Below are positions 3,001 through 6,000 of a stretch of DNA of 50,880 nt, in pieces (the first letter of the stretch is position 1; each line of letters starts with the position of its first letter). Source of the DNA: Thermodesulfobacteriota bacterium. GTDB lineage: Bacteria > Desulfobacterota > Desulfobulbia > Desulfobulbales > SURF-16. Made by a program: the position numbers. The DNA lies in NCBI GenBank assembly GCA_039715015.1, contig JBDLIE010000018.1, positions 1 through 50,880 on the forward strand. The letters are read 5' to 3'.

Positions 3001-6000
3001 GTAACTATGATGTTTACGTTGCTTCTGTCGTCCGGTTGCGTAAAAGAAAAACAAGTCATGGGGGCTGACTGGTACCGAGAAACGCCAAAGGCTGCACACG
3101 AGAAGCGCTTTCCAGCCGGACATGGCGATGCAGCAACGGATAAGAACTGCCATTTCGTAGAAAAAACAAATTCATACTTTTGCCAGTTTGACTGGTTCGA
3201 ATAGCTCCCCAACATAAAATAAGGGGCTGTCCTGGTTAATGAAAGTTATTTAGGGCAGCCCGATAATAATGCCCTAACAAAGGATTTTTGTTTCTCCTAA
3301 ATTCCTTTGCTAACAAAACATCTCCGCCCCTTTTTTTGTGAGCTTGTACGATGGGCTTCTTCCTCCTACATATTCGATGATCCCCTCTGTTATCATTTCG
3401 CTTATAATCTCCTCACAGGCCATTACCTCTTTAGCGCTCAAAGTTGGCATATAGACTTTGTTCAACCATTCCGGAGACAGCATATCTCCTTCCCCAGCTT
3501 TTGCGGCTTTGAACTTACCAAGCAATTCATCTTTAATTGCTAATTTGATTGCCTCCTTGTGCTTGCCCATATGATTTCTCCTTCTTTTTGAAGGAAAGAG
3601 TTGACCTCTTTTCAAGGCATAATCAGCTCTTCCCCAACAATACGATTTATTCTTCCAGATCAACCTCGATATCCAGATCAATCCAGATATCCTTGCCGAC
3701 CATCACCCCTCCATCATCCATGGGCACATTCCAGGCCATGCCGTACTCTTCGCGGTTCACCGCGGTTGTTGCTGTGATGCCGAGGGTGGTCTCGCCGCCG
3801 AAGTCCTCAGGGCTGATCACGGGTCCTGAAAAAGATACCTCAAGGGTGACCGGCTTAGTGACCCCATGGATGGTCAAATCACCGGCCAGTCTGCCGCCGT
3901 CTGCCGCCGCCGCAAAGTTGCTGCTTTTGAAGATTATGGCCGGGAAGGTTCCCACGTCGAAGAAGTCGGGACTGGCAAGATGCTCGTCCCGCTGGGCGAT
4001 ACCTGTATAGAGACCGGTGACGGCCACCGCAACTTCCAGGGAGAAAGAGGAGGGATCTTCCGGATCGAACTGGGCCGAACCGCTTAATTTATTGAACTGA
4101 CCGCGGACATGGGCGACCATCATGTGCCGGACCTTGAATGCTGCCACCGAATGATCGGGATCAATATTCCATTTCGCCATGGGTCTTCTCCATTGTCATT
4201 GCTTAAGAGCAGTTGATAAAACACTGGGGGTCTTCGGCCAGGATATCCCCCTTGCCCCTGCAAAGTGAATGGGCGTAGGCGATGGCCCGGCAGCCCCGGC
4301 AATGCGCCCACCTGGAGCAGCTACCGCACCTACCCTTGTAGCGGCCACGATCTCGGAGTTGCTCTAGAGTCTTGGAATTGGCCCAGATCTCCCGCAAGCA
4401 ATCTTCCCGAACATTGCCGATGGGAACCGCCAACCGCCGACAGGGAGTGACAGTGCCATCGGCCAGGAGCGTCAGGCCAGAAACTCCGGCAGCGCAGCCG
4501 CCGGCGGCAATCGAGCCGCAATCATCCACTCCAGCCCCGTTTCTCATCTGCGAGGCCACCGGATCGCCGGTGACGATCTCAAGGCCATTGACAGGAAGGG
4601 CAAAAATCGCCTTATATATTTCCCTGACCTTGTCCCTGCCGAGCATTTGATCGACCAAACCAAGGCCCTGGCCGGAAGGCACCAACCGCGAAAACCCCAG
4701 GCGCTGCACTCCGAGAGAGGAGGCAATCTCAACCAAGTCCTTAAATTTATCGGCATTGATCTCCGACAGGGTGGCATTCAGGGTCACCTTATGCCCAGCG
4801 GCAAGGAGAAGGCCAATACCTTGGCAGGAAGCGCTGAAACTGCCCTGCCCCCTTATCTGGTCATGAATATCTTCCGGCCCCTCGATACTTACCTGGACAC
4901 CTTTAACGCCAACCTCGGCCAACATTGCCGCCTTTTGGTCATCAATCAGGGTACCATTAGTAAGCAGATAGATGGCGAACCCCCGGGAGCCCATCTCGCC
5001 GAGGACCTCAAAAAGGTCTTCTCTCAGGAAGGGCTCGCCGCCGGTAACGTTAAGGCTTGGGGAAAACTCTAGATGATAGGCCTCTTCCCAGACTTCGAGC
5101 ATGCCGGTTATTTCATTAAGCACCTCACGGATTTCGGCCAAGGAAAGCTCTGTAAAACTCTCACCTGCCTGGTAACAATGCGTGCAGCGCAGATTGCACC
5201 TTTCGGTGAGGTGCCACTGAACAAAAAACTCCTGAAGGCTGCTTATAGGCATCGGCTGTTTGACCTCGGTAAGGGTAAGGTGATATTCTCCAGGTAATAC
5301 AACTAATTGGCAGGTGCAATCACACCTGCCAATTAGGCTTTGTTGCCGACCGGCAACCTATTCAGACTTTCAACCCTTTCACTTGTGGCAAAGCCGGCCG
5401 GGATTCTCCTTAACAGCTTTGCTCATCTTTGCCCAAAAGGCGGCTTCTTTCACCAAGGCTTCTTTGCTAAGATTCTTCTTCATACCAATCCACCTCCATT
5501 ATTGTGACACGGCGACATGCCGTAAGCCTATCAAATAGGATCGGCCACCTACTAAAGTTTTGTCAAATGGAAAAAACGAAAGTTGTCAAATCAAGCCTAC
5601 GCCTCTGGCAATGAGCAATACAATAGTGAGGAAAACACAGAGTTTACGTGAGCAATATCTTCCCAGCAGCAAACGCCTTGATCCTTTAACAATTATGTTG
5701 AAACGTTAAAATTCTCTGGAGATGAACGAATTTTTCTGTCATCTTAGGAGGCCAATATGAAATCAGGAGCCATGCATGAAGTTAAAAAGCAATGAAGAGA
5801 AACTGGTCTGCCAATCGGTAATCGGTGAGATCACCTCACCGCTTGGTGGTATTAATCCCTATAGGATCAACCCGGAAGGTCATTCGGATATTTATCCTGG
5901 AGTGGGTGGCATTACTTATAATGTCAGGATTGGAGACAAGGCCTGCGGCCTGTTTGCCGACCATGTTGAACCCGGGGTCTCCATCTCCAACTTCACCCAG

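Follow-up and report, generated by a model that had tools for sequence, protein, structure and literature searches.

Several described systems resemble parts of the locus presented here. In the SbtA/SbtM pair (TIGR04081/TIGR04082), which occurs in the same phylum, a selenocysteine (Sec)-encoding precursor lies beside a radical SAM/SPASM enzyme. The ACGX (TIGR04340) and GeoRSP (TIGR04303) enzymes are SPASM proteins without an RRE, and ACGX targets carry repeated A-C-G-X motifs. The ranthipeptide maturases CteB, PapB and Tte1186 possess a SPASM domain with a three-Cys cluster I and a four-Cys cluster II and belong to systems with a Cys-containing C-terminal core; according to PMC10177961 they accept Sec in vitro and bind substrate Se at cluster I, and PapB makes selenoethers on CX3D substrates. 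Two Sec residues three positions apart are listed for the predicted UxxU selenoproteins (Prx-like, NF041115 and FmdB family) in Table 1 of PMC13188914. The precursors of the MNIO-made thiooxazole metallophores (bufferins, EGKCG/oxazolins) carry Cys, and TIGR04222 tails pair with MNIO enzymes as given in PMC12452194.

The DNA analysed (the window) is a stretch of 50,880 nucleotides from a Thermodesulfobacteriota bacterium (contig JBDLIE010000018.1). It holds a true SbtA/SbtM pair (684 bits) and, 12 kb away, the following features:

5561..5566, minus strand: TTGACA, probable -35 element of a promoter belonging to the peptide gene itself (sequence and upstream-region enrichment)
5492..5497, minus strand: Shine-Dalgarno sequence GGAGGT of the peptide gene (sequence)
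5358..5483, minus strand: ORF of a putative precursor peptide of 41 residues (translation with TGA=U, TAG stop)
5379..5381, minus strand: first UGA, read as Sec 35 (TGA in 120/121 distinct homolog cores, TGC in one)
5370..5372, minus strand: second UGA, read as Sec 38 (TGA in 120/121 distinct cores, TAA in one)
5342..5357, minus strand: SECIS-type hairpin outside the ORF, 6 bp, loop GGUC (GTTGCC-GGTC-GGCAAC), within model distance of both UGA codons
5303..5336, minus strand: 15-bp hairpin between peptide and enzyme, terminator-like (z = -5.3)
4203..5252, minus strand: radical SAM/SPASM enzyme, 349 aa, no RRE domain (CxxxCxxC and seven conserved SPASM cysteines)
3647..4180, minus strand: YceI-family protein, accessory, no evident signal peptide (PF04264, 155 bits)

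The best explanation, with a probability of roughly 0.72 that excludes the chemistry, is that the peptide contains Sec and is the substrate of the enzyme, which probably remodels it. We infer that the locus is a Sec-containing RiPP system, of a family for which no description was found in the literature; BSepDB and the supplements of papers lay outside that search and could hold the peptide, and the families of Haft and Tolstoy 2025 were covered through the table of the selenoproteome review and NCBIfam 20.0 scans.

Translation of 5483-5358 (minus) with TGA=U gave a lysine-rich peptide with U35 and U38, ending at TAG. Its helical leader bears E-A-A-F-W at residues 13-17 and is followed by the core C32-H-K-U35-K-G-U38-K-S-E, with the tail pattern C-x-K-U-K-x-U-K-S. 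An earlier note on this DNA had proposed that the annotated gene (g01403) is cut short and encodes 41 residues through two UGA codons; both the reading frame and the double-Sec reading held, each UGA being kept in 120 of 121 distinct homolog cores, and so did its report that no NCBIfam model matches the peptide, which is true of Pfam as well. The SbtA model TIGR04081 matched none of 38 family members, a PDB sequence search with the peptide profile returned nothing below E 0.5, ESM Atlas gave no usable match for residues 1–34, and an Rfam scan produced only a chance snoRNA match below the gathering score.

The exceptions at the two codons are single: a TGC at the first site in L079, the only Cys-for-Sec swap found (none at the second site) although such swaps are what Sec is usually judged by, and a TAA at the second site in L046, whose genome holds a second, intact copy. 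The first codon is TGA in 120 of 121 cores rather than in every case, as the 21 of 21 loci of the earlier note had it. The true stop varies (at codon +9, TAA in 46, TGA in 36 and TAG in 10), and the Cys, Lys and Ser codons of the cores vary synonymously, the Ser after the second UGA switching between AGY and TCN. K34, K36 and K39 are kept in 118, 110 and 119 of the 121 cores, respectively, and the residue before the second Sec is Gly or Ser in most cases, a trait shared with SbtA. One homolog with W at both sites (P0360) was rejected as a natural substitution since it looks like a code-4 gene call.

The Sec machinery of the host genome is complete in that selA, selB, selD and tRNA-Sec (selC) were all found, and selA is present in 28 of 30 other genomes tested. 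Hairpins lie at 20–26 nt from the Sec sites of the host's selD, sbtA and hdrA. In the peptide gene the hairpin begins directly after the stop codon, with its loop 27 nt past the first UGA and 18 nt past the second, as previously described; with an energy of -7.8, a 6-bp stem and the loop GGUC it fits the SECIS model given in PMC13188914 (3–9 nt loop with early G, stem of 4–16 bp, 16–37 nt from the UGA, <= -7.5 kcal/mol). Taken singly the hairpin is weak (z = -0.8 to -1.7), and it is conservation that speaks for it: it is present in 120 of 121 distinct homolog cores, and the loop G lies 24–35 nt past the first UGA in 119 of them, while 25 of 3000 random TGA sites of the host genome have a model-fitting hairpin at 25–37 nt. 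Pair swaps such as C-G/T-A and T-A/G-C occur among the homologs, in pair counts that lean towards pairing because the hairpins were chosen by pairing. Of 119 minimal hairpins 83 reach -7.5, and 88 of 121 homologs fit both UGA distances under a strict loop count. SelB, acting on the single hairpin just past the stop codon, would very likely recode both UGA codons. A third UGA, the stop in many homologs, would be too near the hairpin for recoding; of 41 terminal TGA codons, 40 are 6–9 nt away from the loop. The locus would be a clean test case for a single SECIS decoding two UGA codons 9 nt apart, in which a third UGA acting as stop sets a lower distance limit for the SECIS and, in some lineages, the SECIS sits inside the coding start of the next gene. 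The UxxU spacing has a precedent in the predicted bacterial UxxU selenoproteins of PMC13188914, but those are listed as domain proteins, with NCBIfam and Pfam models none of which detects the peptide.

The enzyme (5252-4203) had been called an unnamed SPASM protein under every curated cutoff, and it scores below every NCBIfam cutoff shown here. Its best match is the heme b synthase AhbD (TIGR04545), at 183 bits with a cutoff of 500. The peptide-associated models follow with ACGX at 158 and GeoRSP at 156, the best of their kind and from enzymes of similar length, though far under their cutoff of 400, and SbtM at 134 (cutoff 350); the thioether-enzyme models gave 74 bits (PapB, cutoff 340), 63 (SkfB) and 108 (StsB). 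The ten cysteines of the CxxxCxxC motif and SPASM region (253, 271, 309, 312, 318, 321 and 344 in the latter) are kept in 159–160 of 160 enzymes. No RRE was seen in the enzyme, the structure model of which begins with the barrel, and Foldseek retrieved generic SPASM enzymes at <=25% identity, which pick no chemistry. Alignment to CteB, weak in its second stretch, places the cluster I ligands at C253, C271 and C321 (ligand list from PMC10177961). Seven SPASM cysteines also occur in AhbD/NirJ-like rows, so that an open cluster I site is not diagnostic.

The resemblance to SbtM extends to the motifs Q-W-H, D230 and C-R-(R/K), common to 19/19 family rows and 9/9 SbtM rows. In other respects the two systems differ. 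SbtM has 518 residues and an N-terminal extension that the 349-residue enzyme lacks; the two share 29% identity and fall in separate clades, FastTree resolving the enzyme family (support 92) and SbtM (100) but giving the relation between them no support. SbtM has eight SPASM cysteines against seven here, column 248 being Cys in 9/9 SbtM and 0/19 family rows. The precursors are unrelated: the peptide has K-U-K-x-U-K near its C-terminus instead of G-G-U-G-type motifs, and a single hairpin outside the ORF, whereas in SbtA of this genome a separate hairpin within the ORF accompanies each of the four S-S-U-G sites. The separation from the SbtA locus claimed earlier is borne out by these differences and by the 134 of 350 bits. 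An accessory role for SbtM was rejected, as the genomes searched for both systems share none besides this one; none of the seven other SbtM genomes found is among the peptide genomes. From the ranthipeptide systems the locus differs in that the enzyme has no N-terminal RRE, the peptide has no C-x3-D motif and the natural ranthipeptide substrates carry Cys; the A-C-G-X motif is likewise absent from the peptide. The Lys-Cys of EGKCG parallels the K-U of the core, and TIGR04222 proteins with Cys-rich tails also precede more distant relatives of the enzyme, but MNIO systems employ another enzyme class and exported, Cys-carrying precursors with signal peptides.

Peptide and enzyme occur together. 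The earlier note had found the peptide near 21 of 22 maturase loci; in the larger sample it adjoins the enzyme in 131 of 160, not at nearly all loci. The other 29 comprise 12 with <300 nt of upstream DNA and 17 with >=570 nt. At the genome level 27/27 enzyme-bearing genomes among 401 of the host phylum, and 38/40 among 201 Nitrospirota, have the peptide, in counts where related genomes are not independent; 9 of 11 genomes without a peptide beside the enzyme hold it elsewhere. Two Nitrospirota genomes have the enzyme but no peptide match, one of them with a broken enzyme 5' end, and the same holds for G002 and G016. A weak match in G493 was dropped as it falls in another gene.

A complex of the enzyme with peptide residues 1–34, folded without Sec residues, SAM or clusters, scored 0.83, against 0.00 for the best control. 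The mark applied is reached by 116/157 solved pairs and 2/215 mismatched pairs, counts that hold only roughly here because the complex used its own alignments; the solved maturase-leader complexes SuiB-SuiA and ChlB-ChlA (like fold, 16–22% identity) may also lift the score. The runs agree in >=95% of contacts, with a partner pLDDT of at least 79. In the model the leader lies on conserved enzyme residues (W55 and W290 kept in 160/160 enzymes, R287 in 159/160) and the core region at the ligands C253/C271/C321 and the pocket residues 188 and 229–231. The leader is predicted to be recognised by the enzyme; predicted binding does not by itself make the peptide a substrate.

As modelled, the amphipathic leader (E13, F16, W17) would dock on W55, R287, W290 and A291 without an RRE and put the core region beside auxiliary cluster I, which, having three protein ligands, may bind peptide Se or S. 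By analogy with known enzymes the 5'-deoxyadenosyl radical would then oxidise Cys/Sec residues. SbtM-type oxidation to seleno-oxazole rings is the outcome we consider first, at somewhat less than an even chance. A selenoether macrocycle of the ranthipeptide or sactipeptide kind is possible but doubtful: Se or S at the open iron of cluster I would be joined to a nearby carbon, with the conserved lysines 34, 36 and 39, each four residues from Cys or Sec, as candidate partners. The three-Cys cluster I as in CteB, PapB and Tte1186, the modelled position of the core region and the retention of these lysines are consistent with it. However, a lysine-rich motif with a period of 3 readily yields that spacing, the seven SPASM cysteines are not diagnostic, and the thioether models score below ACGX and SbtM. 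For some other chemistry on the peptide the chance is slim.

Apart from such products, the peptide might be a small selenoprotein that stays unmodified. Its C-x-x-U-x-x-U would then hold a metal or an Fe-S cluster, or form a diselenide, and the peptide would supply electrons or clusters to, or be an activating subunit of, an enzyme that acts on another substrate. The motif has ferredoxin-type CxxCxxC spacing, and Cys-for-Sec versions match Fer4_17 in 2/38 members (E 0.007) and QmoC in 1/38 (E 0.0009), although these Fe-S matches are weak. Strict co-occurrence and tight predicted binding would suit a subunit too, as would the lack of a conserved protease or exporter and a small-molecule enzyme as top NCBIfam match. 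The model, which sets the core region against the cluster I ligands and pocket, and the Cys-rich tails paired with enzyme relatives argue against it, making it unlikely. So does the gene order, since a leader with C-terminal core, an own promoter and a strong stem ahead of the enzyme gene is the usual RiPP layout. It is very unlikely that the peptide is inert and the ORF a cis-acting selenium sensor in which UGA read-through or termination sets enzyme expression. Overlaps exist that would allow this: in L032, L044, L051, L063 and L207 the enzyme frame has no start other than ones overlapping the Sec-coding core, in L071, L072 and L079 the enzyme start overlaps the terminal TGA of the peptide and the hairpin lies inside the first enzyme codons, and in the window a terminator-like stem follows the peptide. 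Yet the spacing ranges from overlap to >400 nt, an intact peptide gene lies far from the enzyme in 9/11 unlinked genomes, and the leader, which is predicted to bind the enzyme, keeps its protein sequence while its codons change freely at synonymous sites; in one branch expression coupling may be present as an additional layer. It is hardly credible that translation simply stops at UGA and yields the annotated 34-residue peptide ending C-H-K. True, 118 of 120 database homologs are annotated as ending at the first UGA and none of the 120 is an all-Cys homolog, but such ends are gene-caller output, and a genuine stop should change to TAA or TAG over time, as happens at the terminal one, while the first UGA never does so in 121 cores and shows one Cys change. 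The amino acids encoded past it are conserved, and so is the distance to the hairpin.

If the peptide is indeed the substrate, the product would, at a guess, stay in the cytoplasm, because a signal peptide is absent and the loci share neither an exporter nor a protease, and be a selenium-based soft-metal ligand or oxidant scavenger. A more elaborate proposal, which we regard as improbable, is an obligate-selenium scaffold on which the enzyme builds a new Se cofactor or metal ligand of 2–3 adjacent chalcogen heterocycles. Anaerobes would use it internally against oxidants or soft metals, YceI would be an optional carrier, and in the overlap branch enzyme synthesis would be coupled to Sec decoding. 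Among the rows of the 2026 selenoproteome review consulted here SbtA is the only peptide natural product precursor; the present locus, if rightly read, would add to it a second family, unrelated to the first, of peptide natural products that contain selenium. With almost no Cys homologs it is a case that Cys/Sec-pair predictors miss, as PMC12013277 states for families of this kind, and it offers a system of just two genes in which new radical chemistry on Sec could be sought.

Ahead of most homolog starts, 5 or all 6 positions agree with AGGAGG. Of 101 non-redundant upstream regions 57 contain TTGACA, where shuffles predict 3.2; the site at 5561..5566 was absent from the listing of a consensus promoter scan. 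No conserved operator was found in these 101 regions, and besides TTGACA the sole standout was a weak ATAG-N7-CTAT in 14. The 15-bp stem at 5303..5336 probably acts on the peptide transcript as a leaky terminator or by stabilising its 3' end, and stems of >=8 bp occur in 104/108 homolog spacers, a count made without a shuffle control.

In 6/46 genome loci there are oxidative-stress genes (thiol peroxidase, SOD, rubredoxin reductase, thioredoxin reductase) no more than 3 kb away, with a background of 39/3000 random windows of the host genome; this is a hint only, the families having been picked post hoc and kin not being independent. YceI is found in 43/161 loci, the window included. That it directly follows the maturase, as noted earlier for most close loci, applies to close relatives (14/15 loci at >=70% identity, window and near-duplicates included) but below 70% identity to only 19/127, plus four with the ORF called long, and YceI is an accessory gene of close relatives and no core part. 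The peptide family itself occurs in ~7% of the sampled genomes of the host phylum and 19% of the sampled Nitrospirota.

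The double-selenocysteine peptide and the radical SAM/SPASM enzyme adjoining it, its putative maturase, are arranged in the window as follows:

5483-5358, minus strand: peptide ORF; with TGA read as selenocysteine, 41 residues ending in C-H-K-U-K-G-U-K-S-E, stop codon TAG
5357-5342, minus strand: 6-bp hairpin with a GGUC loop, 3' of the peptide ORF
5336-5303, minus strand: 15-bp hairpin between the peptide and enzyme genes
5252-4203, minus strand: radical SAM/SPASM gene, 349 aa
4180-3647, minus strand: YceI gene

The enzyme starts 105 nt beyond the peptide stop. SelA, SelB, SelD and tRNA-Sec are all encoded by the genome, which is 99.99% complete.

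For comparison, the best 160 enzyme loci of a larger number (80 genomic, 80 metagenomic) were collected, and peptides were detected with a peptide profile plus the core pattern, on the same strand and upstream of the enzyme. The earlier note had proposed a peptide with two TGA codons in register, and this was confirmed: of the 121 distinct cores, a count that includes the window, 120 have TGA at the first site and one has TGC, while at the second site 120 have TGA and one has TAA. The usual terminal codon, three positions past the second UGA, is TAA in 46, TGA in 36 and TAG in 10 of these cores. A genuine stop wanders among the three codons; neither UGA site does so. In the distinct homolog cores the cysteine codon is TGC or TGT, the lysines are AAG or AAA, and the serine following the second UGA is encoded by AGY as well as by TCN codons. 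Cysteine at both selenocysteine sites was found in none of 120 public proteins, 118 of which terminate, as annotated, at the first UGA. A double-selenocysteine reading of the peptide is very likely.

The bacterial SECIS model, as given in PMC13188914, requires a distance of 16–37 nt from the UGA, an early G and -7.5 kcal/mol. A single hairpin in the window fits it for both codons, at the 27 and 18 nt reported earlier, with -7.8 kcal/mol. A hairpin is present in 120 of the 121 distinct cores, with the loop G 24–35 nt past the first UGA in 119; pair swaps give 68 distinct versions, counts that are biased towards pairing because the hairpins were chosen by it. Both distances fit in 88 of 121 homologs under a strict loop count, most failures being 1–2 nt short at the second UGA, and 83 of 119 homolog hairpins reach -7.5 kcal/mol. 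Where TGA serves as the terminal stop it lies 6–9 nt from the hairpin loop (40 of 41 cases), too close to be recoded. The selD, sbtA and hdrA UGA sites of the same genome have hairpins at 20–26 nt; among random TGA sites of this genome, taken as a control, 25 of 3000 had one at 25–37 nt.

The earlier note placed the peptide near 21 of 22 maturase loci. Adjacency held for most of the larger sample but not for nearly all, the peptide lying upstream on the same strand in 131 of 160. Among the 29 peptide-less loci, 12 are truncated within 300 nt upstream and 17 have longer upstream DNA; 11 of the latter are genomic, and nine of these 11 genomes hold an intact double-UGA peptide elsewhere. In 401 genomes of the phylum the peptide profile matches 26, all of them among the 27 with an enzyme of at least 324 bits (one a partial match), and in the remaining one of the 27, G414, a divergent peptide precedes the enzyme; the next-ranked enzyme homolog in this set (278 bits) has no peptide upstream. 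In 201 Nitrospirota genomes, both occur in 38, the enzyme only in two and the peptide only in one, at a contig end. Both samples consist of incomplete, related genomes. Distribution is patchy, with one of seven other genomes of the genus and one of 24 of the family positive. We regard the double-selenocysteine peptide as real and well supported, and the radical SAM/SPASM enzyme as its dedicated partner.

The two peptide copies whose second site is TAA both come from genomes that contain another copy. In G017 (loci L220 and L221) Cys stands at the first site of one copy and TAA at the second site of the other, and both copies adjoin an enzyme of their own. In G014 (L046, L219) TAA is found in the enzyme-adjacent copy, whereas the copy not linked to the enzyme is intact. 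A decayed, leaderless core and hairpin stand beside the enzyme in G012 (L043, L169), with an intact peptide gene on a different contig, as though the precursor gene had been relocated. At L035, a single enzyme is preceded by two almost identical peptide genes separated by 1.8 kb.

At five loci (L032, L044, L051, L063 and L207) the enzyme frame can start only at codons overlapping the selenocysteine-coding core, and at L071, L072 and L079 the enzyme ATG overlaps the terminal TGA of the peptide. L220 belongs to the same set, in which the enzyme gene begins within the peptide gene or at its end, in the -1 frame. The SECIS of overlapping loci is situated in the first codons of the enzyme and doubles as coding sequence. 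Two public proteins, P0122 and P0123, known from protein only, carry the same shifted-frame sequence at the N-terminus. Judging from this layout, which is absent from the window, enzyme synthesis could be coupled to selenocysteine decoding in such loci.

The enzyme was modelled with peptide residues 1–34 from our own alignments, leaving out both selenocysteines, SAM and the clusters. The complex scored 0.83 against 0.00 for the best control, a value possibly raised by solved maturase-leader complexes of like fold; 116 of 157 solved complexes attain the score mark, as do two of 215 mismatched pairs. At least 95% of contacts are shared between runs, with a partner pLDDT of at least 79. The modelled contacts that are best defined lie between E13, F16 and W17 of the peptide and R287, W290, A291 and W55 of the enzyme. 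E13 and W17 do not vary among the 63 peptides used, and W55, R287 and W290 are conserved in 159–160 of the best 160 enzymes. The modelled interface also spans peptide residues 26–34 and enzyme residues 188, 229–231, 248–254, 271–273 and 321 (core contacts being per residue, not paired), including three cysteines that align with the cluster I ligands of CteB, as listed in PMC10177961. As a prediction, the model supports binding of the peptide to the enzyme.

The enzyme fold model (pLDDT 77) begins with the barrel, so an RRE is lacking. The conserved cysteines number ten, of which seven lie in the SPASM domain and the other three are for SAM. In line with the earlier note, the enzyme stays under the NCBIfam cutoff of each of the best 25 models listed (bits/cutoff: AhbD 183/500, ACGX 158/400, GeoRSP 156/400, SbtM 134/350, PapB 74/340). 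In a 96-row FastTree phylogeny the enzyme family forms one group (support 92) and SbtM another (100), their mutual relation being without support. Q-W-H, D230 and C-R-(R/K) are common to both, whereas the eighth cysteine of SbtM is absent from the enzyme family. SbtM abstracts H from the C-beta of Cys/Sec, and the thio(seleno)oxazole that it makes is lighter by 4 Da (PMC9204691). By analogy the enzyme may perform the same chemistry, though we hold this tentatively; kinship with SbtM favours it over selenoether crosslinks. The latter, suggested by a three-Cys cluster I, would be rather unlikely, and that argument is weak because the seven SPASM cysteines also occur in AhbD/NirJ-like rows. Among lower-scoring relatives, the six at L209, L218 and L263-L266 (209–283 bits) lie behind membrane proteins with Gly/Ser/Cys tails (C-x-x-C), matching TIGR04222 in four of four tested; others lie behind unrelated genes. 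TIGR04222 proteins are often paired with MNIO enzymes close to thiooxazole makers (PMC12452194), and these distant relatives are candidates for a radical SAM counterpart of such pairs.

The window also holds a known selenium peptide system:

17920-19479, minus strand: true SbtM, 684 bits
about 19613-20083, minus strand: SbtA, with four S-S-U-G sites, a separate hairpin following each of them at 20 nt, and after these three S-S-C repeats

The peptide and enzyme resemble SbtA/SbtM in outline but fall outside that family by its membership tests, and the separateness asserted earlier is borne out by the enzyme's 134 of 350 bits against 684 for the true SbtM. A single genome thus contains two selenium peptide systems that are separate from each other, at a distance of 12 kb. 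Scanned against NCBIfam 20.0 and Pfam, 38 peptides gave nothing above cutoff, extending the earlier note's finding for NCBIfam, and public copies are unnamed or 'hypothetical'. Across most rows of the selenoprotein family table in PMC13188914, SbtA is the sole peptide precursor, and three UxxU families are listed. Literature searches outside subscription journals, supplements and BSepDB entries gave no description of the system, PMC13326102, PMC13692751, PMC12013277 and bioRxiv 2022.07.06.499078 being among the papers covered. We consider the pair a second family of selenium RiPPs, with a probability of about 0.72. Elsewhere in the genome (G000:C5:89233-94595), in-frame TGA codons in molybdopterin oxidoreductase and HdrA-like genes likely mark further selenoproteins. 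A third radical SAM gene of the window (43767-45041, minus strand; 424 aa) has a degenerate-looking SPASM region.

That YceI follows the maturase in most close loci, as first reported, is true at 70% identity or above, where it is directly downstream in 14 of 15, but not below 70% (19 of 127, plus four long-called ORFs). Overall YceI is found in 43 of 161 loci (best 160 plus the window), upstream or inverted in six. The peptide has no signal sequence, and no recurring protease, exporter or RRE protein was found in the 52 neighbour clusters scanned of 118 listed; the product is therefore likely intracellular. Oxidative-stress genes are frequent neighbours, in families chosen post hoc, and in the window superoxide-reductase-like and rubrerythrin genes lie 1.4–3.3 kb from the locus:

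1-2674, plus strand: oxygen-defence-type cluster adjoining the operon, made up of a superoxide-reductase-like ORF, an ORF that we take to be TusE/DsrC-like, two rubrerythrin-family genes and DUF1540

A redox or soft-metal role of the product would be a guess. A second YceI gene, with an apparent signal peptide, is located at 46415-46999 (minus strand).
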